Shown here: in pieces, positions 1,172-56,180 of the stretch
Numbering within the stretch: position 1 is the first letter of the stretch
Layout of the letters: every line of letters begins with the position of its first letter
NCBI GenBank assembly: GCA_000092065.1
Contig: CP000593.1
Length of the DNA stretch: 64,000 nt
Strand: one strand, 5' to 3'
Source: Ostreococcus lucimarinus
Taxonomy: Eukaryota
The notes under the pieces: generated by a model
Told to the model about the DNA's origin: nothing
The model's input: the letters and a program-made list of their open reading frames with translations, nothing else
Databases searched by the model: none
Translations under genes and position numbers: made by a program

Positions 1172-3346
1172 GTGGCCCAGCGCGCGCGCGACCGCGGCGC
1201 GCACACCCCGACGCCGCGGCGACGCGACGACGCGATGGCGAGCGCGCGAGGCGCGACGACGGCGACGCGCTCGCGCGGCGTCGCGACCGCGACGCGCGTC
1301 GCGACGCGACGACGACGCGCGACGCGGGCGAACGCGACGAACGACGCGCGCGATGGGTCGAGCAAAGCGGCGCTCGCGGCGAAGATCGCGGCGCTCAGGG
1401 CGGAGAACGAGGCGATCAAGGCGCGGATGACGACGCGAGGCGCGGAGGGAAGCGGCGCGGCGCGCGAGGGGCGCGGGGGGGGGGTAGCGACGATGCGGGG
1501 GGAGACGAAGGCGGAGGCGAGGACGACGGCGAAGGCGGAGGCGGAGGCGTTCGCGGGCGATCTTCCGAGCGCGTACGAGGGGGAATCGGAATACGGCGCG
1601 AAGGCGAAGGCGGCGGCGGCGAAGAAGGCGATGGGGGGGGAGGAGACGGAGGCGACGACGGCGACGACGGCGACGACGGATACCGCCATGTTCGCGGAGG
1701 CGTTACCGCCGCCGACGACGACGGCGCCGACGACGGCGCGACCGCCGGTGGAGAAGACGGATAATCCGATGCAAATCGTGTTCGTGTCGAGCGAGGTGGC
1801 GCCGTGGTCGAAGACTGGGGGGCTAGCGGACGTGTGCGGTTCTTTGCCGCAGGCGCTCGTCGCGCGCGGGCACCGCGTCATGGTCATCGCGCCCAAGTAT
1901 CAAAACGGCTCAAAGTCGGACGTTTTGTACGAAGGCGCGTTCGATACGTGCGTCAAGGCGAAGCTCGGATGCTTCGGTGGCGAACAAGAGGTGGGTTACT
2001 TTCATCAAATGAAGAACGGCGTCGATTACGTCTTCGTCGATCATCCGTCGTTCCACCGCAAGGGTGGACTGTACGGAGATTCGTACGGCGTGTACGGCGA
2101 CAACCAGTTCAGATTCACTTTGTTGTCCCACGCCGCGTGCGAAGCGCCGCTTCAGTTGCCATTCGCGGAGTGCGGTGGTTATTACGGACAAGACGTCGTC
2201 TTCGTCGCCAACGACTGGCACGCCGGTTTGGTACCGACTTTGGTGGCGTCCAAATACCGTCCTCACGGCGTCTACAAGGATGCGCGCACGATTTGCGCCA
2301 TTCACAACATTTTGCACCAAGGCGCGGAACCGTCGACGACGTTCCCGAACCTCGGCGTGCCGAACGAGTGGTACGGCGCGCTCGAGTACCAGTACCCCGA
2401 GCACATGCGCGCGCACGAACTCGATGAGGGTAGAGTGGTGAACATTTTGAAGGGTGCGATCGCGACGTCCGACCGCGTGTTGACCGTCTCTCAAGGGTAT
2501 GCGTACGAAATCACCACCCCAGAAGGTGGTCAGGGCATGGAAGGTTTGCTCTTGAGTCGCCAAAACCGCTTGGACGGCATCGCGAACGGCATAGACATGG
2601 ATGAGTGGAATCCGGAGGCGGATGCGGATTGTGCGGCGGCCTTTACGGTGACGGACATGTCCGGAAAGCTCGAGTGCAAACGCGCGCTGCAGAAGGAACT
2701 GGGCTTGCCGCAACGTGACGACGTGCCATTGATGGGCTTCATCGGACGTTTGGATTGGCAAAAGGGTCCGGATTTGCTCCAGAACGCGCTCCACGACATG
2801 ATGCGCGAGGACGTCCAGGTGGTGATGCTCGGCAGCGGTTTGCCCGAGCTCGAAGACTTCATGCGTTGGGCCGAGAGCACGTACCCGGACAAGTTCCGCG
2901 GTTGGGTCGGTTTCTCCGTTCCCATGGCGCACCGCATTACCGCTGGTTGCGACATTTTGCTCATGCCTTCGCGCTTCGAGCCGTGTGGCTTGAATCAACT
3001 CTACGCCATGCGTTACGGTACGTTGCCCATCGCGCACGCCACGGGCGGTTTGAAGGACACCATCACCGCGTACAACGCGTTCGGCGACGCCGACAAGGTG
3101 TTGGCGGGCACGGCCGATTACAATCAGGGCGAAGGCGTCGGCACGGGTTGGTTGTTCAAAGACATGAACGCCGATGCTCTGATGTGGGCCGTTCGTTCGG
3201 CGTGCGACGTGTATCGCTCCGAACCGAAGATGTGGCGAGCGATGCAAACGCAAGCGATGACGCAAGATTTGTCCTGGGACAACGCCGCGACAAAGTGGGA
3301 AAAGGTTTTCGAGTGGTCTAAGATCGACCCGCCGCACTGCGGTTAG
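1172..3346 (+). CDS. Soluble starch synthase (GT5 ADP-glucose glucosyltransferase), closest to the SSI type, with an N-terminal transit-peptide-like extension
   Basis: Carries the KTGGLADVCGSLPQALVARGHRVMVIAPKY motif and a C-terminal GT1 half (PSRFEPCGLNQLYAMRYGTLPIAHATGGLKDT). The VCGSLP variant favours SSI over SSII or GBSS. The N-terminal region is rich in R, A and T and has a short coiled-coil. Confidence 0.85.
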   Translation: MAQRARDRGAHTPTPRRRDDAMASARGATTATRSRGVATATRVATRRRRATRANATNDARDGSSKAALAAKIAALRAENEAIKARMTTRGAEGSGAAREGRGGGVATMRGETKAEARTTAKAEAEAFAGDLPSAYEGESEYGAKAKAAAAKKAMGGEETEATTATTATTDTAMFAEALPPPTTTAPTTARPPVEKTDNPMQIVFVSSEVAPWSKTGGLADVCGSLPQALVARGHRVMVIAPKYQNGSKSDVLYEGAFDTCVKAKLGCFGGEQEVGYFHQMKNGVDYVFVDHPSFHRKGGLYGDSYGVYGDNQFRFTLLSHAACEAPLQLPFAECGGYYGQDVVFVANDWHAGLVPTLVASKYRPHGVYKDARTICAIHNILHQGAEPSTTFPNLGVPNEWYGALEYQYPEHMRAHELDEGRVVNILKGAIATSDRVLTVSQGYAYEITTPEGGQGMEGLLLSRQNRLDGIANGIDMDEWNPEADADCAAAFTVTDMSGKLECKRALQKELGLPQRDDVPLMGFIGRLDWQKGPDLLQNALHDMMREDVQVVMLGSGLPELEDFMRWAESTYPDKFRGWVGFSVPMAHRITAGCDILLMPSRFEPCGLNQLYAMRYGTLPIAHATGGLKDTITAYNAFGDADKVLAGTADYNQGEGVGTGWLFKDMNADALMWAVRSACDVYRSEPKMWRAMQTQAMTQDLSWDNAATKWEKVFEWSKIDPPHCG

Positions 3347-3403: not shown

Positions 3404-4195
3404 TCACAGCGCGCTCTTTATGACGGCCGCCTCCCCGTCGCGACATCGCGCGTCCCACACCGCGACGCCATCGTCCGCGGCCACCGCGAACTCGGGCTCT
3501 CGACCGTACACTCGTCGCGCGACCTCGATCAAAATCATCGCCGTGAGCCCCCATATCGTGCGCCCCTCGTACTCAAAGTAATGGACGCGCACGGCTGGGC
3601 GCGCCCCGTTCGGCCGCGCCCAGTCGTCGTACCGGTGACGATCCGCGCTCAGAAACATCTCCAGCGGCGCCGTGAACACCTCCGCCACCTCCTCGCGCGA
3701 GATCTCCTCCTCGCGCACGCGAAATCCCTCCCGAACCACCCCCACCACCGGTCGCACGCTCACGCGATGCCTCGACATCACCACCGGCAACCGTCCCACC
3801 ACCTCCACGTCCCTCGGCGTCCGCATCCCGATCTCCTCCCGCGCCTCCCGCGCCGCCGTGCCCGCGTCGCACGCGTCCCGCGCGTCTCGCTTCCCTCCCG
3901 GCAGCGCGATCTCTCCCGCGTGCGATCGCATCGACGTCGCGCGCGTCGTCAGCGTCACGTCCCAACCGTCGTCCCCGCGCGCCGCGAGCGGGACGAGCAC
4001 CGCCGCGCGATCGCTCCCGCGCATTCGCGCGTGCGCCGCCGCGTCGCCGTCGCCGTCGCCGTCGTCGAACAGTCCGCGCAGCGCGTCCGCGCGGCGCGTC
4101 GGCATCGTCGACGCGCCGACGCGTCGCGACGTCGCGACGCATCGTTCCATCCGTCGCGCGCGCCGTCGATCGCGCGCGCGGCGCTTTTGTATCAC
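3404..4195 (-). CDS. Nudix hydrolase of the CoA pyrophosphatase (NUDT7/NUDX15-like) type
   Basis: Has the NuCoA motif LTTRATSMRSHAGEIALPGGK followed by the Nudix box (REAREEIGM). The true start may be an internal Met (M16 or M31). Confidence 0.75.
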   Translation of the reverse strand: MIQKRRARDRRRARRMERCVATSRRVGASTMPTRRADALRGLFDDGDGDGDAAAHARMRGSDRAAVLVPLAARGDDGWDVTLTTRATSMRSHAGEIALPGGKRDARDACDAGTAAREAREEIGMRTPRDVEVVGRLPVVMSRHRVSVRPVVGVVREGFRVREEEISREEVAEVFTAPLEMFLSADRHRYDDWARPNGARPAVRVHYFEYEGRTIWGLTAMILIEVARRVYGREPEFAVAADDGVAVWDARCRDGEAAVIKSAL

Positions 4196-4228
4196 CTTTT
4201 TCGTCGTACACAGTCACCGTTTCGCGCC
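4196..4228. promoter_or_regulatory. Ultra-short (33 bp) divergent intergenic region between the Nudix and SSIII start codons
   Basis: Follows from the two start-codon positions. It implies overlapping 5' UTRs or promoters. Confidence 0.4.
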
Positions 4229-7200
4229 ATGAGTGAAGTCGCGTCGCCGCCGGGTGATGCAAACACCCGGAAGCGCGGATTCGAACGGACGACCACAGCC
4301 ACTCGATCGCGACGCGCGCCATCGCGCGACGCGACGCGACGCGCGTCCAGCGCGCGAGCACGACGCGCGGTGAAACCGCGCGGTGATCCGAACAACCCGC
4401 GGTGCGCGACGCGCGACCGAGCGATCGGTGCGCGGCGTCGACGGCGATCGGCGAAGACGATCGCGGCGGACGGATCGAATCGGTTTTTCGAGACGCGCGC
4501 GCCGCGGGCGATCGAGGCGCGGAAGACGGACGGGATGGCGCGGACGGCGACGCGCGCGGTGAGGACGACGACGACGGGGGGGGGGCGGAGGCGCGGAAGC
4601 GCGGTGAGACGACGCGGGGGGACGCGGGGACGCGCGAGCGCGAACGCGGCGGATGAGACGACGGCGCGCGCGGACGCGGCGGCGGCGGTGCGAGATCTGG
4701 CGAAGACGCAGTTGAACGGCGCGGATGGGCCGAGGGTGTTTACGGTGCCGGCGGTGCCGGTGGCGGGGGCGCCGGTGAGGGTGTTCGCGGACGTGGAGCG
4801 GGCGGACGCGTTGCGGTCGGCGAGCGAGCGCACGCTCGTCGGCGGGTACAACCAGTGGAAGATTGGGTCGTTCGAGAAGGCGATGGAGCGGGTGGAGGGG
4901 ACGAGCTGGGTGTACGTCGACGTTGACGTCGATGAGCGGGCGTACGAAATGTCTTTCGTGTTCAGGGGTGACGGACAGGCGTATGAAAAAGACGAAGGCC
5001 AAGATTTCGTCGCGGCGGTCGACTTCGGGCCGACGCCGGAGGAGTTTGTGGAAATCCTAAAGGTGGTCGCCATGGAAGACGCGGCGCGCGCGGATGCGAA
5101 CGCCATAGTCGACGCTGAAATGGCGTTCGCCCGCGATGGCGTCGCGGGCGTCGGGGCGACGTTTGAAAAGTACGGGCGCCTCATTTGCAAAACCTCCACG
5201 GGGGACGCGGGCGTCGCCGGTAGCACGGAGCGCGTCTTCTGGAACAAGGCACTGAACCCTATTGGCGGTGACGACGCGGAGAAGCTCATCATGCACGTAG
5301 GATTTAACGGTTGGATGCGTGGCGTTGAGGAGAAGTTGACGCTCGTTCGCGCGACGGGCGAAACGAGAGATGAAAATAACGACTGGTGGGTCGCCGACGT
5401 CCCGATTCGTCCTTCGGCGAGCGTGCTCGACTTTGTCATCTCGGACGAGGACGAAATGGCTTGGGACAACAACGAGAACGCGGACTACCGACTCGCCATG
5501 GACGTCACGTCCGACGAGTCCACGTGGGAGGTCTTGCGAGAGCTCACATTCGAAGAAAAACGCGCGGAGGCGCTGCGAGCTTTGGTTGAGGAAAAGCAGC
5601 GCGTCGCCCGCCGCGCGGAGGAGGCCGCGGCGGCCAAGGCGAAGGCTATTGAAGTGGGCTTGAAGCAGCAGGCGTTCATCATTCACACCGAACCGAAAGT
5701 TCCCGAGGTGGGCAAGCCGCTCAAGGTCTTCTACAACAAGAACAACACCCACCTCAACTGGAGCGAAGAAATTTACTTGACTGGCGGCTTCAACCGTTGG
5801 GCGCACGAAACCGCGGTGGCGCCGATGAAAATGACGCCTCCGACTGAGGGCGAAGAATTTTTCTCCGCCACCGTGCCGAGCGTACCGTCTGACGCGTGGA
5901 TGGTCGACTTCGTCTTCAGCAGTGGCGTTGGCGAAGGTGCGCAGTATGATAACAAGGGCGGACGTGACTATCACATCCCGACGCGCGGAAGCGCGGCGAA
6001 AAAGCCGCCTCTGCACGTCGTGCACGTCGCGGTGGAGATGGCACCCATCGCCAAGGTTGGCGGTTTAGCCGACGTCGTCACCGCCATCGGTCGCGCCATT
6101 CAAGATAATGGACACTTAGTGGAAGTCATTCTTCCGAAGTATCAGTTTTTCAACAACTCAGTCTTGCTCGGCGCCAGAGAATACGAAACGCACTTCGATT
6201 GGGCGGGCACGACGATTCGCGTCGAAAAGTGCAAGGTGGAAGGCTTGCAGTGCTTCTTCATCGAGCCGCAAAACGGCATGTTCCAGACCGACTCGGTGTA
6301 CGGTAGAAACGATGATGCTGAGCGTTTCAACTTCTTCTGCAACGCTGCGCTCGAGTTCCTCCTTCGCACGGCTCGTCAGCCGGATATTCTTCACTGCCAC
6401 GACTGGAGTTCGGCAGAAGTCGCGCGAGCTTACTGGGACCACTACCATCACAATGGTTTGACCAAGCCAAAAGTGGCGTTCACGATTCATAACATGAACT
6501 ACGGGCAAGCCAAGCTCGGTGAGGCCGTGCACCACTCACAGATGACGACCACGGTTTCGCCGTCCTATGCGGGTGAAGTCTCGGGCAGCCCGGTGATCGG
6601 AGGCAACGGCGGCAAGTTTACCGGTATTCGTAACGGCATTGATCCCGACATTTGGGACCCCGAAACGGATGCATTCGTGCCGGTCAAGTATAACGCCGAG
6701 AACGCTGAAAAGGGCAAGGCAGCGGCCAGGGCTGAGCTTCGCAGTCGCCTCGGCATGACTGGTTGGGACGACAAGCCCATCGTCGGCGTCGTCTCTCGTC
6801 TCACCGCTCAAAAAGGTGTACACCTGATCAAGCACGCCGCACATCACACCATCAGTCGTGGTGGGCAATTTGTGTTGCTTGGTAGCGCGCCTGATCCCAA
6901 AATTCAAGGAGATTTCAACGGTCTCGCCAATCAACTCGCCGGCGACAACTCTGGTTTCTTCTTCGCGTTTGACGAGCCGTTGTCGCACCTCATGTACGCT
7001 GGTTGCGACATCATCTTGGTCCCGTCTATGTTCGAGCCGTGTGGTTTGACACAGATGATTTCCATGCGCTACGGTGCTGTACCTGTCGTTCGTGCCACTG
7101 GTGGCCTGCGTGACACCGTCTTCGACGTCGATAATGAAAAAGAGCGCGCGGCTTGGGAAATCGCCGGTTCCACCGACTGGGAAAAAGATGGCGACATGAC

Positions 7201-7390
7201 GAACGGCTTTAGCTTCGAAGGGACCGATGAAGGTTCGCTCAACTACGCGCTCGATAGATGCCTCGATGCCTTCTACAACGATCGCGTGTGGTTCCGTTCG
7301 CTTCAAAAGCGTTGCATGCTCCAAGACTGGTCCTGGAACAAGCCCGCGCTCGAGTACGAAGAGTTGTACTTCAAGATGCTCGGGCAATAA
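4229..7390 (+). CDS. Starch synthase III with three N-terminal CBM53 starch-binding modules and a GT5 catalytic domain
   Basis: Carries the KVGGLADVVTAIGRAIQDNGHLVEVILPKY motif (the KVGGL form typical of SSIII/IV). The three CBM53-like modules include LKVFYNKNNTHLNWSEEIYLTGGFNRWAH. The C-terminal half has SMFEPCGLTQMISMRYGAVPVVRATGGLRDT. The six-frame ORF runs from 3581, but its first 216 codons overlap the Nudix gene on the other strand, so the first non-overlapping in-frame ATG at 4229 (MSEVASPP) is taken as the start. Confidence 0.85.
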   Translation: MSEVASPPGDANTRKRGFERTTTATRSRRAPSRDATRRASSARARRAVKPRGDPNNPRCATRDRAIGARRRRRSAKTIAADGSNRFFETRAPRAIEARKTDGMARTATRAVRTTTTGGGRRRGSAVRRRGGTRGRASANAADETTARADAAAAVRDLAKTQLNGADGPRVFTVPAVPVAGAPVRVFADVERADALRSASERTLVGGYNQWKIGSFEKAMERVEGTSWVYVDVDVDERAYEMSFVFRGDGQAYEKDEGQDFVAAVDFGPTPEEFVEILKVVAMEDAARADANAIVDAEMAFARDGVAGVGATFEKYGRLICKTSTGDAGVAGSTERVFWNKALNPIGGDDAEKLIMHVGFNGWMRGVEEKLTLVRATGETRDENNDWWVADVPIRPSASVLDFVISDEDEMAWDNNENADYRLAMDVTSDESTWEVLRELTFEEKRAEALRALVEEKQRVARRAEEAAAAKAKAIEVGLKQQAFIIHTEPKVPEVGKPLKVFYNKNNTHLNWSEEIYLTGGFNRWAHETAVAPMKMTPPTEGEEFFSATVPSVPSDAWMVDFVFSSGVGEGAQYDNKGGRDYHIPTRGSAAKKPPLHVVHVAVEMAPIAKVGGLADVVTAIGRAIQDNGHLVEVILPKYQFFNNSVLLGAREYETHFDWAGTTIRVEKCKVEGLQCFFIEPQNGMFQTDSVYGRNDDAERFNFFCNAALEFLLRTARQPDILHCHDWSSAEVARAYWDHYHHNGLTKPKVAFTIHNMNYGQAKLGEAVHHSQMTTTVSPSYAGEVSGSPVIGGNGGKFTGIRNGIDPDIWDPETDAFVPVKYNAENAEKGKAAARAELRSRLGMTGWDDKPIVGVVSRLTAQKGVHLIKHAAHHTISRGGQFVLLGSAPDPKIQGDFNGLANQLAGDNSGFFFAFDEPLSHLMYAGCDIILVPSMFEPCGLTQMISMRYGAVPVVRATGGLRDTVFDVDNEKERAAWEIAGSTDWEKDGDMTNGFSFEGTDEGSLNYALDRCLDAFYNDRVWFRSLQKRCMLQDWSWNKPALEYEELYFKMLGQ

Positions 7391-14522: not shown

Positions 14523-16853
14523 TTACAATTTCGCGCCGCACTCGTAACAAAACTTGAGCGCGACGGCGCCTACGGGATGGTTGAGCGCGCACGCGCACGC
14601 GGGACACGAAATAGACGATGATTTTGCGACGTGGTTTTCCTTGAGCGGATCTCGCGCGTCGGCGGCGACGGCGTCGAACGCGAGCGCCTGGTGACGTTGC
14701 GACTGTTGCGCCGCCGCCGCCGCGCGCGGACGCGCGATGGCGTCGCGCTCGATGATCGAGGACGATGTCGTCGTCGCCGTCGAAGGTTTGCGTATACCGA
14801 GCGCCAAGAAAGTCTTCTCCCTGCGTTCTTCGATCTGTCGCTTGCGTTCGGCGCGACGCTGCGCTCTCGCGTCCTCATCCGTTTCGCTGATGAGCTGACG
14901 GAACGACTTCTCACGCGCCTCGGCGTCTTCGACGACGTTCGATCGACCTATTCTCGGTAGAATGGTCGCCGCCGCGGCGTTTTGATCGAATTGCGACATC
15001 GCGACGTCGATTGATTTCGAAAACGTCTCGATGAGGAACCCTTCGACGAGGGCGTCTTGTTCGCCAACACGACGAGACGTCGGATTTGACACGCTGGATT
15101 CGTTCACGTCCATCAATCTATCCGCGATATCGTCGAATCGTAGCGCGTACGCGTGCGAGGCGGCGGTATTCGTAGCCTTCGTCGCGCCGGGATCGACGCG
15201 AATGCCGACGCGCGTCGCTTCGCCGCCGCGATCCCATCGCCGCGCATACGCGGCGTACGCATCGCCTTCGCTCGATCTGGTCCCACGCGACGCCGCAGCG
15301 ACGGCGGAAAAGATTTGCGAGCTCTTCACGGCACCGATCTCGGGCGAGATCGCTTCGTCGAGCGGTACCAAATTCGGTTCGGCGTCTTTGTACACGTCTT
15401 CGTTCACGTCTTCGACGACGTCTGCGTCTTCCACGATATCCTTGAGCTTGACGCTCTGTCGAGCGCTGAGTAAACCGAGCGCGTGATCCGCTTCGTCTAA
15501 TGCGTTTTGACGTGCGAGTGTGCTCATGTTGTCCATCGCGACGTTGACTTTGTTCAACCCACTCGCGCCCGCGCTCGCGGAGAGACGCCGCAACAATTCG
15601 GGCACCGTCGCGAACGCACGAAGATGAAACTCTAACCCATCGGCACCGCGGCGCACGGGATAGAGCAGCATCGGCGTAGCGTCGAGTTGTCCGTCGCTCG
15701 ACACGTCGCGGTACTGACGCCGCGCCGCCGTGCCGCTCATCCATTGAGTCTTCACTACCATCGCCGGGACGTCGCCTGGCGTCGGCGCGTCCGCGAACGC
15801 CGCGCTCCACGACGAAAACAACGCCTCGCGCACGTCTCGCGACTCCGGGACGTCGTCCATGCGCACGCACAGAGATAACGTCGAGCTCAAGTACACGCTC
15901 GGGATGTCGCGCGCGCGCACAATTTCCACCACGCGCAACGCGCTCGCTCTAGGCGGCGCGGGCGCGGGCGGTCTCGGCGCCGAGCTCGTCGTCGCCGTCG
16001 CATCCATCGTCTCCTCCTCCCCATCATCCGCGCTCGCTCGCGGCTGCAAACGCGTCGCGCGTAACCCGTGAATTTCTACCCTATCTTTCCCGCTCGACGA
16101 CGCGAACGCCAACGTTCCTCGCCACCGCTCGCCCAAATCCACCGTCTCGTCGTCGCCGACGTTTGAAATCGACGCCCCCGCGGCGTCCGCCACCGCTCGC
16201 GCCATCTCCGACCCCCCCCCCTCGCCGCACAGCACCACGCGACACCGCGCGAACGTCCCGAAGCACGCCTTCGCGCGTCGAAACACGCCGTACGCCGCGA
16301 CCATTCCCGTCGTCCACGCCGCGCCGCGTTTAAAATCGCCGACAGCCGCCGCGTTCGGCGCGAACCAAATCACATCCACCCACACCCCTCGCTCGCGATT
16401 CGCTCGCTCCATCGCCCCGCACGCGCTCGCCGCCGCCTCCTCCGCGCTCGCGCCGCGTCCGCCTTCGCCGTTTTCCCGCGACAATTCAATCCTCGCGTCT
16501 CGCAGCGTCTCCCGCAGCGTCTCCGCGTCGACCCCCGTCGTCGTCTCGCTTTCCCGCCCATCGCTCGCGAGCGCGCGCGCGATCCCGGTCCCCCACGCGC
16601 GCGCGACGTATCGCGCTCCCCTCGACGCCGCGCCGAGGCCGTTCGCGCGCAGCGCGTCGTCGTCGTCGTCGTTCGCGCGCGTCGTCCGCGTCGCGCACCC
16701 ATCGTCGTCGTCATCTTCCCCGTCCCGCATCGCGCGTTCGCACGCCGCGACGCCGTCGAGCGCGTCGATCGCGTCCGCGCACCACCGCGCGCTCGCGGCG
16801 CGCGCGTCGAGGTCGCTCGCGGCGTCGCCGACGAGCGCGACGACCAAACGCAT
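14523..16853 (-). CDS. Hypothetical 776-aa protein with a possible vWA/Rossmann-like N-terminal region and a C-terminal C4 zinc ribbon
   Basis: Long ORF with non-repetitive composition. The N-terminus [15 protein letters not shown]...[10 protein letters not shown] is Rossmann-like. The C-terminus has a CPACAC...(16 residues)...CYEC zinc ribbon. I cannot name a family. Confidence 0.5.
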
Positions 16854-16922
16854 CGCGGCGCGGCGACGAATGAAGTCGAAAATTCGTCACAACGCCGCGT
16901 CGCGCGGTGCGGCGCGCGCGCG
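16854..16922. promoter_or_regulatory. 69-bp divergent intergenic region between the 776-aa hypothetical gene and the bZIP gene
   Basis: Follows from the two start-codon positions. Confidence 0.4.
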
Positions 16923-17390
16923 ATGTCGCCGCGCTCGAGCGCGATGACGCCGACGCCCGGTAAGCACCGACGGTCGCTGAGCACGCCCGTGGACGTGCTG
17001 GCGTCGAGCGCGCTGCAACGGGCGCTCGATCGCGCGCGGGACCGACACGGCGGCGACGACGCGCCGAGCCGAAGCGATTCGCTGTTCGGGGACGAGGACG
17101 CGATGGCGCACGCGATGGCGATCGATTTGGACGACGCGCCGCTGGACGTGCGAGAGCTGGCGATGCAGGATCCGAAGCGAGCGAAGAGGATTTTGGCCAA
17201 CCGCCTGAGCGCGGCGCGGAGCAAGGAGCGAAAGACGCGATACGTCAAGGGGTTGGAAAAGAAACTGAACGAGCTGGAGGAGTGCGAGAGGACGTTGATT
17301 TTGGAGAGAGAAAGAATGGCGACGGCGGTGGCGACGCTGGCGGCGGAGAATAGCGCGTTGCAGATGATGATGGGGACGCCGGCGCGGTGA
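16923..17390 (+). CDS. Plant-type bZIP transcription factor
   Basis: Basic region [20 protein letters not shown] (the plant N-x7-R signature [16 protein letters not shown]), followed by a heptad leucine zipper ([36 protein letters not shown]). Confidence 0.8.
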
Positions 17391-17526
17391 GACAATCGGA
17401 GGGGAACGTCGAGACGAGGGGAATTTCGATGAAGAAATGTAATTTTACTGCAAGTGTACCGTACTGGACGACGCGCGTAAGAGCTAAGATGCGTTCTAAG
17501 CGCTCGCGGCGAGAGCGTGCGCGCGA

Positions 17527-19522: not shown

Positions 19523-19816
19523 CGCCGACGCGCGCGGCGTCGCGCTCTGCCGCGCGCGTCCGCGTCGCCGCGAAACCGAAAGGTCGAGGCGAAGGGTCGT
19601 TGGCGTCGACCGCGCGCTTCGGCGCGTCGCGCGCGCGCGCGAGCGGCGCCGACCGCCGCGACGCGCGATCGATCGTCGGTTCGCGCGCGCGGGCGCGCGG
19701 CGGCGCGCGGCGCGCGGGCGCGGCGTCGACGATCGATCGCGACGGCTCGGGACACGGCGACGCGACGACGCGCGAGGACGACCGCGCGAGCGACGGCGCG
19801 CGCGAGGACGACGGCG

Positions 19817-20693: not shown

Positions 20694-21539
20694 TCAGTCG
20701 AGTTGCCCGCGGCGGCGCAATCGAAGCGTGATCTCTTCCAACCTTTCGCTCGCCGTGGGGTTGTTCGGCGACAACACTAAGCTCTCCTCGTAGCACTTGA
20801 TCGCTTCCTTGAGCTCCTTCTTCTTCTCGTACGCCTCGCCGAGATTGTTCCACGCCGTGACGTAGCCAGGCTGTAACGCCACCGACTTCTTAAACTCCAC
20901 GATCGCGTCATCAATCTTATCGGTATTGGAGTATCCAAACCCCAAAGCGTTGTGCACCAACGCCAAGTCCTGTTCGTCTCCGTCCCAGTTCTCCTCCGCC
21001 GCCTGCAAATTTCTCACCGCCTGCGTGAACACCTTCTTCCTCAACAAAATGCTCCCCATCTCGAAGTAATCCTCCGCGCTCGCGTTCCCCGCCCGTATTC
21101 TCTCACCCATTTTCTTCGCTTGGTCGTCCAACTCTCGACGAATCAGCACTTGTCGCACGACGATGAACCCGGCGCCGCCGAGGATCGCGAGCAGCGTCCC
21201 CAGGTAAAACGCCTGGATCCCTCCCTCGAGTTCCGCCGTCTGCGCGATCGCCCGCGCGTGCGCGACGTGCGTCGACGCCGAGGCGTAATCTATGTCACTC
21301 AGCGACACGCCGCGCGTCGCGTGCGTCGCGCCGCGTCGCGCCGCGACGACGACGCGCGCCGATCGTCGATTGGATAAAGTCGACGCCGGCGCGCTTCTCG
21401 CCGCGCCGGCGCGACGCGGCGGCGCGCGCGGCGGCGACGTCGAGCGCATCGCGAGCGTCGCTTCCGCGGCGAGCATCGTGGCGCGGGCGATCGAGCGCGC
21501 GCGAGGGTGTGGCGCTTCGCCGATCGCATCGCAGCGCAT
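20694..21539 (-). CDS. Plastid-targeted TPR protein with one transmembrane helix, Ycf37/PYG7-like (photosystem I assembly factor family)
   Basis: N-terminal S/R/A-rich presequence, then a TM segment (AFYLGTLLAILGGAGFIVV) and three TPRs (AEDYFEMGSILLRKK, LHNALGFGYSNTDKIDDAIVEFKKSV, YVTAWNNLGEAYEKKKELKEAIKCYEESL). This matches the Ycf37 layout. Confidence 0.6.
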   Translation of the reverse strand: MRCDAIGEAPHPRARSIARATMLAAEATLAMRSTSPPRAPPRRAGAARSAPASTLSNRRSARVVVAARRGATHATRGVSLSDIDYASASTHVAHARAIAQTAELEGGIQAFYLGTLLAILGGAGFIVVRQVLIRRELDDQAKKMGERIRAGNASAEDYFEMGSILLRKKVFTQAVRNLQAAEENWDGDEQDLALVHNALGFGYSNTDKIDDAIVEFKKSVALQPGYVTAWNNLGEAYEKKKELKEAIKCYEESLVLSPNNPTASERLEEITLRLRRRGQLD

Positions 21540-22067
21540 CGCGACCGCACTCGAACGCGCGCGATGTCGCTCGCGATGACGACGCGCGCGCGAAGCGCGC
21601 CGGTGGTGGGCGTCGATGCGCGCAGACGACGAGGCGCGAACGCCGACGTCAAGGCGCGCGCGCGATGCGTCGCGCGAGCGTCGGAAGCGAACGATGACGA
21701 CGATGGCATCCAGCTCGGAACGGCGAAACTGCCGCCGACGTGCGATGAAACCGCGCTATGCGATGCGCTGTACCAGTGGGCGAGCACACTGACGAGCTCG
21801 GGGCAAAATTTGCCGTTCGCGCTGTCGCAGCGCGTGGATCGGACGAACGATGGGTTTGAGTTGGCGTTTTTGACGGCGGCGAAGAACGGCGCGCCGGGGG
21901 AGTTGGCGGCGGTAGGGGCGATCGCGGCGAGCGTTGAGGTCGCTGGACAAGAGAAGGTGTTGATGATACGTGGATATGGGAATGTAATGAATTTGGTGGA
22001 CACGCCTGTGGTGATGGGGGCGATGCCGGCGGCGATTCGACGCGCCGTCGCGATGTCTTCGGCGTGA
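21507..22067 (+). CDS. Hypothetical small protein, possibly organelle-targeted (alternative start at 21564, MSLAMTTRARS)
   Basis: ORF with a conserved-looking C-terminal core (VLMIRGYGNVMNLVDTPVVMGAMPAAIRRAVA). No domain recognised. It overlaps the 5' end of the PYG7-like ORF if both use their first Met. Confidence 0.35.
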   Translation: MWRFADRIAAHRDRTRTRAMSLAMTTRARSAPVVGVDARRRRGANADVKARARCVARASEANDDDDGIQLGTAKLPPTCDETALCDALYQWASTLTSSGQNLPFALSQRVDRTNDGFELAFLTAAKNGAPGELAAVGAIAASVEVAGQEKVLMIRGYGNVMNLVDTPVVMGAMPAAIRRAVAMSSA

Positions 22068-23203: not shown

Positions 23204-26200
23204 TCACGACGTTGCACAGAACGCGGCGTCTTCGGTGAAGATGTTAGCGATGGTGACGTTCTGCTCAGGGAGCTGTAACGCCAAACCGTCGATGTGACGA
23301 ACGGTGAAGAGGGCGCTCGATGGACCGCCGACAATCCAGCACTCGGCACAGAGAGAGATATCGCGGAACGTGAGCTCGACGCCGGCCTCGACAACTTTAG
23401 CTTCGACGTAGACGCCACAGCCATTGTCATCGCTTGATGGTGGTCCATCGCGAGATCGCACGCCGACGAAGATGCAATCGACGATGAAGTCTTCTGGAGG
23501 CGCGACAATCGGAGCTTCGTTCGCAGCAACGACGATTCTCTCAAATGGAAGCATCACGGCGACACCATTCAGGCAGATTTGATCGCTCACGCGTCCAAAA
23601 TTGATCGCTGTTCCTGTAACGACAGCTTGAGAACCACCTTCGCCGCGTAAGAGCTGGAGACTCAAGCGTGCGTCCGTCTCGCGTAAACGCTCTGGCGCGG
23701 ACTCCGTCGGACAAATCGTTGCGTCGTCGGGTGAGCACGTTCTCGAAAGTCCATCGACCGGAATCGGCGCCGGAGTCGGTGTGGATGGCGGTGCACCAGG
23801 AGGCAACTGTGCGCCCGGTATTACCGTAATCGTCGACGCTGGGATCTGCACAGGGACACCAGGCTGAAGAGTGAAGTAAGTCGCGGAATCCGGAGCTGGA
23901 GGCGTGGGCGATGATTCTGTCGGAGGCGTAGGCGTAGGCGTTGGCGTAGGCGTTGGCGAAGGCGTTGGCGTAGGCGTTGGCGAAGGCGTTGGCGAAGGCG
24001 TTGGTGAAGGCGTTGGCGAAGGCGTTGGTGAAGGCGTTGGTGAAGGCGTTGGTGGTGGTGATGGCGATGGTGGAGACCTTTGCGTAGGAAACCATCCGCT
24101 CGTCCAAGGAACGTCCGGACCTCGATCCCATGCGGCAATTTCCGTAGGTCCACGCTCCGCGGTGTATCCACCGCCAATCGCCCGTTTCAACCAACACGAG
24201 TGATATGCAAAGTCTTTGCAATCGCCGGTACAGTAAACCCACGTATCACAGTCGCGCGTTCGAAAGCATGCTTGGCAACACGCCTCTTCGGTATCGACGA
24301 TGAATTTTGAGCCATCGCGAAGAAGTATGCCTTTGAGGTTCAATCCTTTTTCGCCGTTGCACACGAGACCGTTTACCGGTGTTGGCGTCATCGGAGGTGA
24401 AGTCGGAAGCATCGCAATTGGCTCAACGAGTTGTCCTTGTATGTCTCTTCGACAAGTGGGGTTTCCAACCGATGGCCCAACGTAATCAAAACGCGCGCCC
24501 GAAAGCGATACAACGCGAAACAAGGTCTCATTGTCGCCCTGGAGTTTGCATCCAGCACACAGCGTGACGTTCGACAGGGAGACTTCGAGCAAAGTAACTT
24601 TCGGCAGTGGTCGTCCACTCGCCTCGTTGAAGACGCCGTCGGGTGCGTACGATGCCATGCGGAATTGAAGCCCTGCACAAGGTTCGAGGCTCGGAGTGCG
24701 AGATTCGCCGTTCACGACGGTTATCATCAAACACTCAATGGCGTACTCGTCGAAAGGATTTTGAACTTCTCTCCACGTACCGTTGATGTCATTTACCCAC
24801 GAACTCAGCACGATTGGGATGTTGACATCAATCAACCGAATCGCACCACCGTCGTTGTTTACTCCAATCGAGCCGCGGAAATCATAGCGGTTGAATGGCG
24901 CGACTCGGAAGTCGCCACCGACGTCGACGCGTTCACCAAACCACGACAGCGAGGCTTGAACGCGTGGAAGGACATCGAGACAATCCACGGGGCGTCCTCC
25001 ATCTGAGGTTTCGCCGTCGAAACCGTCGCGAAAAGATGGACGTGCGTATTGCGTCAAATTGAAGCCAGCGAGCGGTCGTAACGGCGCGATCGATGGTGTG
25101 ATGTCTGTGCGATTTGCGTCGCCAAACTGGTCTTGATCTGGAAAGAAGGGAATGCCACCAAAGAACTGTAGCAATTTGCGTCGTGAATCGTTAGGAGGAC
25201 TCTCGAATACGTCTGTCCAACTACCTCCGACATCGCATTGAAGCGCTCGAATCGTTGGCGCGAGTGCGTCGAGTGTCGCCTCTGATTCATGCTTTGCGGT
25301 GAACAGTTTACCATCTTGAACACGTCCCGTGATGGCGGCATCCGGAGGAATCGTCAAGTTTGCAAGTGTTATTTTGATACCGGCGATACTTTCTTCAATC
25401 GTCGCGCGATCGCACAGCGTATCATCTAGGACTTCTCCGCGAGCGGATATGAGCGAGAGTCCAGCGCATTCCACAGATGGAACGCTCAAAGCATCAACGA
25501 ATTCATTCATGTTACCTTCCCGACGTCGATAGCCAATCACGACCGTGACTTCAGGAACACGAATTGTGCTATTCGCGCAACAACCGATTGCGCCGAGAAC
25601 GTCGTAATCGGTCGAGTTTGGCCGCGAGGCGACGACGAGAAAGTTCTTCAGTTCTCGGACCGGATCGCACTCGCTGCGTCCAGGCGTGTCGCTTGGAATC
25701 ACTTGACCGTTTTCAACGACAACACCGTATCCTTCAAGCGGGCGTGTAATGGGTGGAGTGTCCGTTCCGATCGGAATCGTCGGATCGGTGTCATTTCCGG
25801 GCCGTTCAACGACGATGGTTTGAACCCCTAATTCCTCGGAGAGCGCCGGGCAGGCTTCCGTCAAATTGAACCCGCATCCTAGCGGCGTGAACCCAACAAT
25901 CTCTCGCAAGAACATGACGTTATCGTCGGTGATGAGTGTGAAATCATCGCACAGACAGCTTTCGTTGTGCAATCGAGCTGCAGCGCCGCAGCACGGTGCA
26001 AAATCAGAGATGCGTGGTATCACTCCGACATCGTTTTGCTGAATCGCGCTGCAGTATTTCCGCGTCACGTCAATCGTATCGGCGCAGGAGATGTCATCTC
26101 GCAACGCGCCACCATCGTCAACAATGCGCTCCCACTTTTCGTCGGGGATGACGAACTCGGGTACCGCAGTCGGAGTGCTCAAGAATTGCGTCAAAAGCTG

Positions 26201-29200
26201 CTGATCCTCGCACACGTCACCGACTTTGATTCTAAAACCGCACGCAAGAGGCGTAAATGCTGAAAGTTCACCTACGGACGGGCGGATGCCTTCGAAACTT
26301 TGAATGAACTCTGGAACGCAGAAACATCCAGCTTCATCCAAGTCGCTCAGCGCAACGCAACAACTCGGGAACGAAGCAGGGTTCGGACCACTGATGGTCG
26401 CAGTTTCAAATCCCACGCACAGTTCTTCGACACGTGGGATATTCGACACGCACAACGATGTGAGCTGCGAGTATTCCGAAGTCGGTACGAGAGCTATGAC
26501 ACGAACAAGGCGTTCTGCGGAGACATCGCATCCACCTGAGTCACGCACTCGGTAATACACGCGATAAGTGCCGACACGACTGGTGTCCACTTCGCTTGTG
26601 TCTGCCTCGATTGCGTCTGAAATGTCACCGTCGAGTTCATCCGTCGCAACAGCCCCGGGGTCAACGTACAGCGAGTTGAGCAAGACTTCATTTTGCACTG
26701 CATTTGGTCCGCCGACGAGACGTAGCGTTGGGCATTCATCGACTGGAGGTGGTGGACTCGGCGGTGGCGGTGGAGGCGGCAACGGTGGCGGCGATGGTGG
26801 AGGGGGGCTTGGTGGCGGGGGGCTCGGCACTGGAGGCGGCGGTGGTGGACTCGGCGGCGACGGCGATGGGGGCGATGGGGGTGGTGGTGATGGGCTCGGT
26901 GGTAGAGGACTCGGCGGCGGCGGCGATGGAGAAGGCGGGCTCGGCGGCGGCGGCGATGGAAGCGGACTCGGCGGCGGTGGCGATGGCGGAGGTGGACTTG
27001 GAGGCGGACTCGGAAAGCAAGACAGGCCGGAAACGAGCTCAAGTCCAGAGTCACAGAGAGTCGGTGCAGTGATTTGAACGGTGCGAATCGCATCACCGAG
27101 TTCGTCGATGATGGCTGTATCGCAAAAGCAACGCTCGACGTTCATTCCCCTAACAATGTCGCAGCATGACGGATCGAAAGCTTCGTCATTTTCGATGCCA
27201 AAAATTGATCCACATCGACCTTGTAAATCCTGAAGAAGTCGGAGACAAGTAGGAAGAATCGGAGGGGATGGAGATGGCACCGCCACCGGCGGTGGAGGTG
27301 GCGGCGATGGAACTTCCACCGGCGGTTGCGGCGGAGGTGATGGCGATGGAACTTCCACCGGCGGTTGCGGCGGAGGTGATGGCGATGGAACTTCCACCGG
27401 CGGTTGCGGCGGAGGTGATGGCGATGGAACTTCCACCGGCGGTTGCGGCGGAGGTGATGGCGATGGAACTTCCACCGGCGGTTGCGGCGGAGGTGATGGC
27501 GATGGAACTTCCACCGGCGGTGACGGCGAGGGAGGTGATGGTGATGGAACTTCCACCGGTGGAGGAGGAGACGGTGAAGGTTGCACGATCGGAGGCGATG
27601 GTGGTGGTGATGGCATCATGACTTCAGCGCCGACTACGCCGCTTGTCCATGTCACGTTTTCCCCGCGTTCCCAAGCCGGCACCGGAATCGTTTCCACATC
27701 TTCTTTCGAAAGCTTCTTCAGCCAGCATTCGCCGAACTTGTAGTCGTAGTACTCGTTGCCACAGCCATCGATAGACGCGCAGAATACCCAAGCATTGCAC
27801 TTTTTCATTTTTTTGCACTCGGCGCAGCATTCGGTTTCGCTATCGACAACCAAGTCCGAGCCGCTATTCAACGGATGTCCCTTGTAATTGGCGTTTTCTT
27901 CTACTCGACACCCCTCAATCGACGGGACGGGTTCAGGAATTCGATCGACGAGCGAGCCACTGACCCAAGGAACGCCGTCGCCTCGCGCGATGGCTGGTGG
28001 TTTTTGAGGGTCGCCGCCGACGAGAAAAAGTTTCAACACACACGTCTGGTAAGCGAATTCGCCATCGCATCCGCTGACGTCATCGCAAAAGTTCCACACA
28101 GCACACGCTGGATCAGCGAGGCAAGCGTCGCAGCACGCGCTCCAAGAGACTGCGTTAACAATTGAAATCTGGATTCCGTCGTAGTTTGCGTTTGTCTCTG
28201 CTCGACATTCTTTGCGCTCGTTTGATGTATCAAACGGCACTGGCTCCACTTCTTTATCACGCAGCGCACCGGAGATATAAGTCGCGTTTGGTCCACGTTT
28301 GCCAGGAATGGTGTCTTGAGAAATGATTTCCGGTGCGGCGTACTTGAGTTCGCAGGATGAGTACGAATAAGCGAACTCCGATCGCCCGCATCCGTCGTTG
28401 GCGGTACAGAACGTCCACACGTTGCAGTTTGGATTTTCTCTACAGGCTAAGCAGCAAGCTTCGGGAGATGGAACCAAGAACAAACCAGTAGTGAGTGTAG
28501 ATCCTTCGTACTCTGCGTTTGCCTCCTCGTCGCACGGGCGGACGAGCTCCGCGTCAGTCGGCCCGTCGCCCCGCGGAAATCCAGCGCAAATCGGTTCGCG
28601 TAAACCATTCGGCGAAATTTCTGTGCTCGAGAAACCACGACCATCCGCGTACGAGAGATCGAGAACGACGTTGTTTGGACCACCGACGATGAAGCAGCCC
28701 GGGCACAGCACTAAATCATCACCAAAACTGAGTTCTACGCCTCGTTCGGTAACGACGGCTTTGCATGTTGCCGCGGCGTCGCTCATGGGTACCGATGAGA
28801 TCGGATAGACGATTTGCAACCCCTCGCACGCGGCTTGCAACTGAGACTGCTCGTAGTCTCCGCCGAGATCGATCGCGAACGTCACCTTTGACGCGTCAAG
28901 AGTGCTGCACGAGCGATGTCCGACGATGCCGCGAATTCGAGCGACGCCGTCTTCAATCTGAGACTCGAGAGTGCTGAAGACGACGTCGAGAAGACTCGGA
29001 CACGCACTCAGCATGATTTGAGCGTTTGGATTCCAGCCAAACGTTGACGTTGGTGCGACACTTACGATTGAGGATGCGGTGGTAAACGCGCTGGGATCGC
29101 ACGTGGGATCGAGCGCGCGCACCGATTCGGCGTCAAGCACGCGCGATTCGCGATCTCGAAAAGAAAACAAAAAGTTCGAGTATCCTCCGGCGAGGAACTC

Positions 29201-29644
29201 GCCAGCGTTTAAAGCGATGGCGCCAAACGTCACACGTGGGCCGACATCATTCATCTGGATGCTTAAATCGCCGCAGTCGACGATTCGCCGCGCACCGCTC
29301 GGAGCGACGATCTGCGACCCCCAACACGTAAACTCAAACTCGCCGAGCGTCGTAAACTCGCTCGCGGCGTCATCCAATCGTATCAATTTCGAAAATTCAA
29401 ACTGAACCGTAACTCCATTCAAATTCACCTCGCGATCGGCATCATTCACGATCAACACGCTCGCGTACGTCTCGCGCGCGCCGCGATCCGCGTCGTCGGC
29501 GCGCGGCGCGTCGACGCCGACGCGAAGCATCGAATCCGTCGGCGTCGAGTGACTCCACGCGTACGCATCGATGGACAACGCCCCACCACCGAATCCTTCG
29601 CAATTCACACCCGCAAAATCCACGTTCGTCGCTTCATCGTCCAC
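23204..29644 (-). CDS. Giant (>=2146 aa) mosaic extracellular protein with extensin/HRGP-like proline repeats, four PAN/apple-like modules, three plant 8-cysteine-motif (nsLTP/HyPRP-like) modules and a novel ~100-aa module repeated four times; the 5' end is incomplete
   Basis: Continuous 6.4-kb ORF. Proline-rich blocks: SPPPPSPPPPSP..., (PPQPPVEVPSPSPP)x7 and (PSPTPS/PTPT)n. PAN-like units: CCLACRENPNCNVWTFC, CCDACLADPACAVWNFC, CCAECKKMKKCNAWVFC and CCQACFRTRDCDTWVYC, each followed by a W(T/V)SG motif. The three 8CM units follow C..C..CC..CXC..C..C. The repeated module reads ...GVEL(S/T)F(G/R)D..LC..C.IVGGP.... The ORF begins directly after a TAG with GTG as its first codon, so no ATG or signal peptide is present at the ORF start and the first exon is probably upstream. 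Confidence 0.8.
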   Translation of the reverse strand: MDDEATNVDFAGVNCEGFGGGALSIDAYAWSHSTPTDSMLRVGVDAPRADDADRGARETYASVLIVNDADREVNLNGVTVQFEFSKLIRLDDAASEFTTLGEFEFTCWGSQIVAPSGARRIVDCGDLSIQMNDVGPRVTFGAIALNAGEFLAGGYSNFLFSFRDRESRVLDAESVRALDPTCDPSAFTTASSIVSVAPTSTFGWNPNAQIMLSACPSLLDVVFSTLESQIEDGVARIRGIVGHRSCSTLDASKVTFAIDLGGDYEQSQLQAACEGLQIVYPISSVPMSDAAATCKAVVTERGVELSFGDDLVLCPGCFIVGGPNNVVLDLSYADGRGFSSTEISPNGLREPICAGFPRGDGPTDAELVRPCDEEANAEYEGSTLTTGLFLVPSPEACCLACRENPNCNVWTFCTANDGCGRSEFAYSYSSCELKYAAPEIISQDTIPGKRGPNATYISGALRDKEVEPVPFDTSNERKECRAETNANYDGIQISIVNAVSWSACCDACLADPACAVWNFCDDVSGCDGEFAYQTCVLKLFLVGGDPQKPPAIARGDGVPWVSGSLVDRIPEPVPSIEGCRVEENANYKGHPLNSGSDLVVDSETECCAECKKMKKCNAWVFCASIDGCGNEYYDYKFGECWLKKLSKEDVETIPVPAWERGENVTWTSGVVGAEVMMPSPPPSPPIVQPSPSPPPPVEVPSPSPPSPSPPVEVPSPSPPPQPPVEVPSPSPPPQPPVEVPSPSPPPQPPVEVPSPSPPPQPPVEVPSPSPPPQPPVEVPSPPPPPPVAVPSPSPPILPTCLRLLQDLQGRCGSIFGIENDEAFDPSCCDIVRGMNVERCFCDTAIIDELGDAIRTVQITAPTLCDSGLELVSGLSCFPSPPPSPPPPSPPPPSPLPSPPPPSPPSPSPPPPSPLPPSPSPPPPSPPSPSPPSPPPPPPVPSPPPPSPPPPSPPPLPPPPPPPSPPPPVDECPTLRLVGGPNAVQNEVLLNSLYVDPGAVATDELDGDISDAIEADTSEVDTSRVGTYRVYYRVRDSGGCDVSAERLVRVIALVPTSEYSQLTSLCVSNIPRVEELCVGFETATISGPNPASFPSCCVALSDLDEAGCFCVPEFIQSFEGIRPSVGELSAFTPLACGFRIKVGDVCEDQQLLTQFLSTPTAVPEFVIPDEKWERIVDDGGALRDDISCADTIDVTRKYCSAIQQNDVGVIPRISDFAPCCGAAARLHNESCLCDDFTLITDDNVMFLREIVGFTPLGCGFNLTEACPALSEELGVQTIVVERPGNDTDPTIPIGTDTPPITRPLEGYGVVVENGQVIPSDTPGRSECDPVRELKNFLVVASRPNSTDYDVLGAIGCCANSTIRVPEVTVVIGYRRREGNMNEFVDALSVPSVECAGLSLISARGEVLDDTLCDRATIEESIAGIKITLANLTIPPDAAITGRVQDGKLFTAKHESEATLDALAPTIRALQCDVGGSWTDVFESPPNDSRRKLLQFFGGIPFFPDQDQFGDANRTDITPSIAPLRPLAGFNLTQYARPSFRDGFDGETSDGGRPVDCLDVLPRVQASLSWFGERVDVGGDFRVAPFNRYDFRGSIGVNNDGGAIRLIDVNIPIVLSSWVNDINGTWREVQNPFDEYAIECLMITVVNGESRTPSLEPCAGLQFRMASYAPDGVFNEASGRPLPKVTLLEVSLSNVTLCAGCKLQGDNETLFRVVSLSGARFDYVGPSVGNPTCRRDIQGQLVEPIAMLPTSPPMTPTPVNGLVCNGEKGLNLKGILLRDGSKFIVDTEEACCQACFRTRDCDTWVYCTGDCKDFAYHSCWLKRAIGGGYTAERGPTEIAAWDRGPDVPWTSGWFPTQRSPPSPSPPPTPSPTPSPTPSPTPSPTPSPTPSPTPTPTPSPTPTPTPTPTPPTESSPTPPAPDSATYFTLQPGVPVQIPASTITVIPGAQLPPGAPPSTPTPAPIPVDGLSRTCSPDDATICPTESAPERLRETDARLSLQLLRGEGGSQAVVTGTAINFGRVSDQICLNGVAVMLPFERIVVAANEAPIVAPPEDFIVDCIFVGVRSRDGPPSSDDNGCGVYVEAKVVEAGVELTFRDISLCAECWIVGGPSSALFTVRHIDGLALQLPEQNVTIANIFTEDAAFCATS
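23895..24065. repeat. Tandem 6/12-nt repeat (ggcgtaggcgtt / ggcgaaggcgtt units) encoding the (PSPTPS/PTPT)n track of the giant protein
   Basis: Direct periodicity visible in the sequence at 23904-24060. The alternate frames give the NAFTNAFANAF... and GVGVGEGVGEGV... ORFs. Confidence 0.85.
26740..27040. repeat. Low-complexity GGN/CCN-rich block encoding the SPPPP-type extensin-like region
   Basis: ggtggcgg... and ggcggcgg... runs. The giant ORF reads PSPPPPSPPPPSPLPSPPPPSPPSPSPPPPSP here. Confidence 0.8.
27268..27610. repeat. 42-nt tandem repeat (about 7-8 copies) encoding the 14-aa unit PPQPPVEVPSPSPP of the giant protein
   Basis: The plus-strand unit ggcgatggaacttccaccggcggttgcggcggaggtgatg recurs nearly perfectly, giving the ELPPAVAAEVMAM x5 periodicity in ORF 27268..27621. 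Confidence 0.85.
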
Positions 29645-35110: not shown

Positions 35111-35128
35111 AAAATATTGCACGATATG

Positions 35129-39877: not shown

Positions 39878-39898
39878 GCCTTGTCATATCATAATCCT

Positions 39899-56127: not shown

Positions 56128-56133
<6 letters not shown>

Positions 56134-56178: not shown

Positions 56179-56180
<2 letters not shown>

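Follow-up and report, generated by a model that had tools for sequence, protein, structure and literature searches.

Short head-to-head intergenic gaps in a gene-dense stretch of Ostreococcus lucimarinus nuclear DNA

The short head-to-head gaps that can be found in a 64,000-nucleotide stretch of Ostreococcus lucimarinus DNA (contig CP000593.1; the whole stretch is referred to below as the window) form the lower tail of a uniform genome-wide compaction and are no class apart. They are a local instance of a published, already known feature of Ostreococcus genomes. The focal gap lies between a gene for a bZIP transcription factor and a gene for a lineage-restricted protein of 776 amino acids. Like the other truly short gaps (69-132 bp), it is a bidirectional promoter region in a structural sense, and the closeness of the two focal genes alone does not mean that they are co-regulated.

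Gene content and head-to-head gaps of the window

The window is ordinary, gene-dense nuclear DNA of the O. lucimarinus type. Read from its second methionine (Met8), the bZIP protein is identical to XP_001420935.1 from O. lucimarinus CCE9901, the same sequence being found on many marine metagenome contigs, and the order of the genes is that of the O. tauri chromosome CAID01000013.2. GC content ranges from 0.52 to 0.70, and the codon-position GC of the long ORFs points to a GC3-rich eukaryote pattern. By means of a codon log-odds model, Pfam and orthologs, 33 genes were mapped between positions 132 and 54564, with a coding fraction of 0.90 in this mapped part. Identity to a named genome, a high GC content and about 90% coding sequence are as in a standard Ostreococcus (Mamiellales) nuclear chromosome. 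The statement in the preliminary description that such compaction is typical of picoeukaryote genomes is borne out by the identity to XP_001420935.1 and by the 90% of coding sequence. An Rfam scan of the whole window gave zero matches. A tRNA-Pro(CGG) called by ARAGORN at 34512-34587 (minus strand), inside the N-terminal portion of the SelR/MsrB ORF, has no Rfam match even at E<=1 and is probably a false positive.

Some other loci of the window deserve a brief mention. An ORF of about 2100 aa at 23204-29644 (minus strand), which is split variously by gene callers, exhibits an atypical codon usage (log-odds of about 0 per codon) and a GC3 of 0.55 vs. about 0.75 elsewhere; its O. tauri counterpart, of 2150 aa, harbors PAN_4 and Bact_surface_Ig-like domains. 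At 54713-55771 (minus strand), a protein with seven WD40 repeats is encoded in an open frame that lacks any ATG before residue ~248. Its first exon is therefore placed beyond an intron in 55772-56307, and the WD40/ADA2 gap is not measurable. The region 57955-60277 (about 2.3 kb, GC about 0.52) has no confident gene, although several minus-strand ORFs of 150-245 aa can be found in it, for which Pfam returned only a weak DUF3685 match; it may correspond to a multi-exon or fast-evolving gene.

The preliminary description listed five pairs of divergent genes with start codons very close together. All five exist, all are divergent and their gene names are right, as judged from Pfam, PDB and the reading of exons, Pfam supporting bZIP, NUDIX, the starch synthases, ankyrin, GWD, and dethiobiotin synthase together with aminotransferase (BIO3-BIO1). 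The lengths fare less well: the range of 33-132 bp given for these gaps is wrong, the best-supported range for the five pairs being 69-384 bp (Table 1). Downstream starts that widen the gaps, named beforehand as the observation that would count against the claim, can be found in three of the five pairs on the evidence of sequence and orthologs rather than of TSS data, the lengths given for the focal pair and for BIO3-BIO1/CSN7 being correct. Codon scores of the three claimed upstream extensions are about zero or negative.

Table 1. Features of the window and classes of gene junctions
Feature	Position	Strand	Details
776-aa lineage-restricted (orphan) protein gene	14523-16853	-	ORF; start ATG 16853
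bZIP transcription factor gene	16923-17390	+	Pfam bZIP_1, E=1e-6
Focal head-to-head gap	16854-16922		69 bp; 90 bp (to 16943) with the second bZIP Met as start
Imperfect dyad symmetry (palindrome)	16849-16904		inverted-repeat search
Upstream ORF, 25 codons + stop	16870-16947	+	overlaps bZIP ATG 16923; ends ATGA on second Met
Ran/starch synthase gap	992-1234		Ran exon 1 from 991 (-); starch synthase ATG 1235 (+)
Nudix/SSIII gap	4151-4534		Nudix ATG 4150 (-); SSIII ATG 4535, or in-frame ATG 4229 (+)
TPR/DUF7148 head-to-head gap	21477-21563		87 bp with Met22 start; absent from the preliminary list
ABC1 kinase/class-3 lipase head-to-head gap	33079-33168		90 bp; GC 0.82; no AT-rich patch; absent from the preliminary list
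Ankyrin (gankyrin-like)/GWD gap	44221-44399		ankyrin ATG 44220 (-); GWD ATG 44400 (+)
BIO3-BIO1/CSN7 gap	53656-53787		BIO3-BIO1 51052-53655 (-); CSN7 53788-54564 (+)
Divergent junctions			n=11; median 179 bp (best-supported starts: 242 bp)
Tandem junctions			n=11; median 202 bp
Convergent junctions			n=10; median 68 bp

For BIO3-BIO1/CSN7, the claimed 132 bp is confirmed, both genes beginning with an ATG (53655 and 53788). CSN7 matches PDB 8h38_G (E=3e-19) with an N-terminal offset to human CSN7b of only 4 residues, and its strand carries seven upstream ATGs, at -59 to -107, all at least 59 nt before the start. The 180 bp claimed for Ran/starch synthase was counted to position 1172, which is a GTG; the first ATG, at 1235, gives 243 bp. 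The starch synthase has 703 aa here vs. 708 aa in O. tauri, where the gap to Ran is 413 bp. In the window the middle of this gap is AT-rich over about 100 bp (1051-1158) and includes TATA-like strings on both strands, separated by about 36 bp. Ran itself (767-991 and 132-800, minus strand) is interrupted by an intron immediately behind the P-loop, exon 1 ending in GDGGTG and exon 2 continuing with KTTFVKRH in another frame, so that Ran does not begin at 1025, where the long ORF has its first in-frame ATG.

Similarly, the 33 bp claimed for Nudix/SSIII depended on a GTG at 4195, the first ATG of Nudix being at 4150, which leaves 78 bp to the ATG at 4229 and 384 bp to the ATG at 4535. From ATG 4150, Nudix has 248 aa, and its orthologs 245-258 aa. 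Codon usage and orthologs indicate that SSIII most likely starts at 4535, with a gap of 384 bp rather than 78 bp: the codon score of 4229-4534 is -3.0 vs. +24.2 for the next 100 codons, the alignment with the curated 943-aa SSIII of O. tauri, whose frame is closed 35 codons further upstream, begins at the Met at 4535, and this start also fits the ortholog models (O. tauri and others), which have 943-951 aa. In relatives, the Nudix/SSIII gap is 557 bp (O. tauri) and 552 bp (lineage L022).

The 35 bp claimed for gankyrin/GWD does not hold either: position 44256 is a TTG right after a TGA stop, and the first ATG, at 44400, gives 179 bp, the codon score of 44256-44399, upstream of GWD, being -1.9. 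Since the ankyrin protein begins at Met27 in a UniProt entry derived from a transcriptome, this gap may exceed 179 bp. A search for homologs of the GWD N-terminus gave four matches, the one with 80% identity being on a contig with 53 nt ahead of the call, so that it cannot fix the start, and a look-up through the partial ankyrin protein for NCBI O. lucimarinus models around GWD returned no record. An out-of-frame upstream ORF of 46 codons (44263-44403) ends with ATGA exactly on the GWD start at 44400, and the upstream ORF of the bZIP gene does likewise on Met8 (16944-16947); both endings may be due to chance in CG-rich sequence or to termination-reinitiation. Three starch-metabolism genes lie within 48 kb, i.e., a soluble starch synthase (1235-3346), SSIII with CBM53 modules (4535-7390) and alpha-glucan water dikinase (44400-48833), the first two also adjoining in O. 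tauri.

Among the 32 junctions of the mapped genes, 11, including that of the focal pair, join genes on opposite strands with adjacent 5' ends, which is not a significant enrichment (P=0.15). ATG-to-ATG distances at these divergent junctions are 69-563 bp, with no significant difference in length from tandem gaps over the 32 junctions (Mann-Whitney P=0.87; 0.67 with best-supported starts). Transcription start sites lying within these gaps would thus be separated by less than 1 kb, the distance by which bidirectional promoters are operationally defined. Since divergent gaps are not shorter than tandem ones, general compaction accounts for the short gaps. An additive spacing model (divergent equal to twice tandem minus convergent) was tried and rejected, its deficit not being significant (P=0.12-0.18) and becoming smaller with best-supported starts. 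Two further short head-to-head gaps are listed in Table 1. In one of them, TPR/DUF7148, the distance is 24 bp by the first ATG, the Met22 start yielding a protein of 260 aa, equal to that of O. tauri, in which the gap is 144 bp. Convergent spacers go down to 18-21 bp (35111-35128 and 39878-39898), and the 3' UTRs at convergent junctions almost certainly overlap.

The focal pair and its counterparts in other lineages

The gap of 69 bp between the focal genes is as first described, with a CAT at 16851-16853 and an ATG at 16923. For the 776-aa gene, a start at ATG 16853 is well supported by protein alignments, its N-terminus aligning with MARLVVALVE of O. tauri and with the N-terminus of lineage L009. 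The protein has a CxxC...CxxC motif at its C-terminus; neither Pfam nor PDB searches gave a match, and 10 homologs were found, O. tauri among them. The bZIP protein has 155 aa from ATG 16923 or 148 aa from ATG 16944, the latter being the start of the NCBI model XP_001420935.1 (148 aa). Lineage L009 (91% identity) has no equivalent of the first bZIP ATG and uses the second Met, and in five lineages a conserved N-terminal motif of 10 residues can be found 7-30 aa from the start. Because of these two candidate bZIP starts, the focal gap is given as 69-90 bp. Taken together, the conserved N-termini in O. tauri and in three to four metagenomic lineages make both focal start codons well supported.

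The head-to-head arrangement of the bZIP and 776-aa genes recurs in four other Ostreococcus lineages, with gaps of 23-108 bp. The distance between the two ATGs is 108 bp in the curated annotation of O. tauri (L019 7893-8000), 83 bp in L009, 60 bp in L005/L006, where the start is less certain, and 23-74 bp in L007, the most distant lineage (37% protein identity). Gene orientations, start codons, the spacer's length and composition and the conservation of the arrangement in Ostreococcus are thus matters of observation. In the Ostreococcus-like lineage L008 (50% protein identity), the bZIP gene is absent between DUF789 and the 776-aa ortholog, which follows DUF789 in tandem after a spacer of 171 bp (L008 1357-1529 vs. 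window 16854-17526). Such an arrangement implies that a head-to-head pair has cleanly lost (or gained) an entire gene. As the 776-aa gene is kept in L008 without the bZIP gene, its promoter is therefore independent of the partner.

The sequence of the focal spacer itself is poorly conserved. In the five orthologous bZIP gaps, no common k-mer was found beyond the expectation from dinucleotide shuffles (P=0.05-0.36). Within O. lucimarinus, the gap is identical across 7 aligned metagenome contigs of this type, and 13 such contigs show a single SNP (16861 C>A) in 90 bp, a rate equal to that of silent sites. A scan of metagenome contigs with an exact 27-nt pattern taken from the gap recovered six long genomic contigs, none of which ends inside the gap, and was uninformative for start sites.

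What sets the focal spacer somewhat apart is an imperfect dyad symmetry. Its arms (16849-16871 and 16882-16904) are 23 nt each and 78% complementary, around a core GACGAAT-N10-ATTCGTC, and the DNA fold of the gap has a z of -2.7, as good a fold being reached by 1 in 200 shuffles. The folds of the orthologous gaps have a z of -2.9 in L009, -1.8 in O. tauri, where the dyad reads GACGATGA-N17-TCATCGTC, and -0.4 in L005. The symmetry can thus be found in three of the four lineages tested although the sequences differ, which hints at a symmetric element serving both sides; it is absent in L005. The same analysis of the other divergent gaps of the window gave no significant fold. This conserved, dyad-symmetric bZIP/orphan spacer is the sole mildly unusual lead of the analysis.

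The dyad arms carry CGTCA/TGACG-like half-sites. Such half-sites can be found in all five orthologous bZIP gaps, but their background is 3.7 per kb, they were chosen post hoc and some overlap start codons, and they were rejected as a finding and retained as a speculative lead. It can be imagined that the two genes form a conserved, co-regulated module in which the bZIP protein would bind a palindrome with inverted TGACG/CGTCA half-sites (a site of the bZIP type) in the 23-108 bp spacer and thereby regulate both itself and its neighbor; we regard this as very unlikely. If true, the bZIP/orphan module would rank among the smallest known eukaryotic promoters that are both bidirectional and autoregulatory. 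As for the upstream ORF at 16870-16947, the O. tauri equivalent is only ATG-AAC-TAA (2 codons) and L009 has no upstream ATG. Without conservation, it is therefore probably untranslated or non-functional, and it does not qualify as a conserved-peptide upstream ORF of the sucrose-control type of plant bZIP genes. The structure of the bZIP leader RNA gave no signal (z=+0.8).

Composition of the divergent gaps and competing explanations

Gap composition differs with orientation, the GC content being 0.63-0.82 in divergent gaps and 0.28-0.54 in convergent ones (window 132-54564). Divergent gaps hold 24 runs of (CG)4 or longer per kb, as opposed to 9.5 for tandem gaps and 3.2 for coding sequence, i.e., an enrichment of about 8-fold in divergent gaps over coding sequence, and the top discriminating k-mers of the divergent gaps are all of CG-repeat types. 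A single TATA-like hexamer is present in 2253 nt of divergent gaps, which in composition belong with promoters of the CpG-island type (TATA-poor). Five of the divergent gaps have a single central AT-richer patch with CG-rich flanks reaching each ATG; in the focal gap (GC 0.72), the scan for such patches places the single central patch of lower GC at 16866-16894. The scan found no AT-richer patch in the ABC1/lipase, ankyrin/GWD, RINGv/homeodomain and TPR/DUF7148 gaps. A GATTCG/CGAATC motif, recurrent by eye, was discarded: it is only about 3-fold enriched on 7 and 5 counts and does not figure in the list of top discriminating k-mers.

A scarcity of upstream ATGs is limited to the 40 nt next to start codons (6 observed vs. 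10.5 expected, P=0.09), and this confinement of the depletion to about 40 nt suggests short 5' UTRs that need not overlap. Over 13 contigs covering 6950-27300, segregating sites amount to 0.79%, 0.51% and 1.42% at first, second and third codon positions, respectively, and to 2.3% in divergent, 1.1% in tandem and 0.6% in convergent gaps. The same 13 contigs give no deficit of segregating sites in divergent gaps (2.3% vs. 1.4% at third codon positions). The most variable spacer is that of RINGv/homeodomain (19523-19816, GC 0.81).

The explanation that we favor, with somewhat better than even confidence, is that each short divergent spacer is one CpG-rich, TATA-poor promoter region that probably fires both ways as a result of compaction. 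Compaction throughout the genome would reduce every intergenic spacer to roughly 20-400 bp, and a head-to-head spacer would then amount to one promoter region, at most about the size of one nucleosome-free region, from which RNA polymerase II probably initiates both ways. In the focal gap, the central dyad-symmetric and less GC-rich patch (about 16864-16894) would be the shared initiation zone. Transcription would start back to back at or near the edges of this patch, and the CG-rich flanks would be very short 5' UTRs, of about 10-50 nt each. These transcription start positions and UTR lengths are inferred, and so are the existence of one nucleosome-free region and a possible common use of regulatory factors. 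A pre-initiation complex covers about 70 bp. With a gap of less than 100 bp, two initiation complexes or core promoters must occupy the same DNA, and in the truly short gaps (69-132 bp) one stretch has to accommodate two core promoters along with two 5' UTRs.

This physical constraint bears directly on the view that two independent minimal promoters stand back to back with nothing shared, the closeness being a by-product of the deletion of dispensable DNA. Each gene would then have its own sites in its 5' UTR or in the transcribed sequence of the neighbor, and expression within pairs would be unrelated. Several observations agree with such independence, namely the lack of a common conserved motif in the orthologous bZIP gaps, the absence of a polymorphism deficit in divergent gaps, the functionally unrelated partner genes, the retention of the neighboring 776-aa gene in L008 without the bZIP gene, and the TATA-like strings on the two strands of the Ran/starch synthase gap. 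To judge from its citation in PMC2850359, the footprinting study of Piganeau 2009 also inferred that bidirectional regulatory elements are fewer in Ostreococcus than in yeast. However, two pre-initiation complexes cannot fit into 69-90 bp without physical overlap, and the dyad symmetry in three lineages hints at an element that serves both sides of the focal gap; on balance, full independence is rather unlikely. That the gaps only look short through misplaced start codons, the true starts being downstream Mets and the promoters of normal size, applies to three of the five claimed pairs (GTG or TTG codons), and SSIII (most likely 4535), TPR (Met22) and possibly ankyrin (Met27) do start further downstream. 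As a general explanation it is hardly credible, given that conservation of both focal N-termini across lineages begins at the first or second Met, that the curated O. tauri gap is 108 bp, that CSN7 is offset by so few residues from its human counterpart, and that even the corrected gaps (179-384 bp) are still small.

Divergent transcripts could also cross, each starting inside the 5' UTR or coding sequence of the other gene and overlapping it antisense at the 5' end, as the preliminary description proposed with its overlapping 5' UTRs and as other compacted eukaryotic genomes show. Overlapping UTRs do concatenate RNA-seq assemblies of O. tauri (Blanc-Mathieu 2014, PMC4378021), and the ABC1/lipase and TPR/DUF7148 gaps, having no AT-richer core, may have their promoters in flanking coding sequence. 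In the focal gap, however, a bZIP transcript starting upstream of 16870 would meet the ATG of the out-of-frame, non-conserved upstream ORF first. The seven upstream ATGs on the CSN7 strand and the limitation of upstream-ATG depletion to about 40 nt likewise speak against crossing, and overlaps in Micromonas are mainly tail to tail (PMC4815162). Crossed transcripts are for these pairs decidedly improbable, and the single promoter region that fires both ways is retained as the preferred reading.

Relation to known systems and significance

Compaction in Ostreococcus was reportedly described in the genome papers of Derelle 2006 and Palenik 2007. The window belongs to the same group and shows the same phenomenon, its medians (179-242, 202 and 68 bp for divergent, tandem and convergent gaps) fitting the genome-wide compaction of Ostreococcus and the Mamiellales; nothing essential differs, the shortest values of the preliminary description having come from non-ATG codons. 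Yeast bidirectional promoters, which share one nucleosome-free region (as reportedly found by Xu 2009 and Neil 2009), are alike in belonging to a compact genome with divergent pairs a few hundred bp or less apart. Unlike the AT-rich promoter regions of yeast, the divergent gaps of the window are CpG-rich (GC 0.63-0.82), and the shortest ones (69-90 bp between starts) are below typical yeast divergent spacers. Mammalian head-to-head genes with start sites less than 1 kb apart reportedly have CpG-island bidirectional promoters, as Trinklein 2004 is said to have found, and share with the window a CpG-rich, TATA-poor spacer. However, in the sparse genomes of mammals such pairs form a distinct, enriched class, frequently with co-expression, whereas the divergent junctions of the window are neither significantly enriched nor shorter than tandem ones. 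In the extremely compacted genomes of microsporidia and nucleomorphs, for which Williams et al. 2005 reportedly described overlapping transcription, the loss of intergenic DNA likewise pushes transcript ends into neighbors; the pattern there is mostly one of read-through and multi-gene transcripts.

Among algae, the VCP promoter of Nannochloropsis is active in both directions by experiment (PMC3566019). Nannochloropsis also has a small genome with many divergent pairs less than 1 kb apart, but it is a stramenopile, and there a single fragment has been demonstrated by experiment to drive both directions, whereas the Ostreococcus gaps are candidate two-way promoters. Intergenic regions are below 200 bp in both Ostreococcus genomes (Monnier 2010, PMC2850359), 2288 bidirectional transcript pairs have been counted in O. 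tauri (Liu 2014, PMC4035068), and the mean intergenic distance in Micromonas is 167-211 nt (PMC4815162). TSS information was unavailable for these algae at the time of Reineke 2011, and no later TSS map was found in a literature search.

With regard to significance, there is little beyond annotation hygiene. The lesson for annotation is that stop-to-stop ORFs in a genome of 60-65% GC yield starts that are too early, at GTG or TTG codons or at spurious in-frame ATGs, and gaps whose lengths are consequently underestimated. For the engineering of Ostreococcus, those gaps that really are short (69-132 bp) offer compact candidate two-way promoters, and short gaps such as these are test cases for two initiation complexes that share less than 100 bp.
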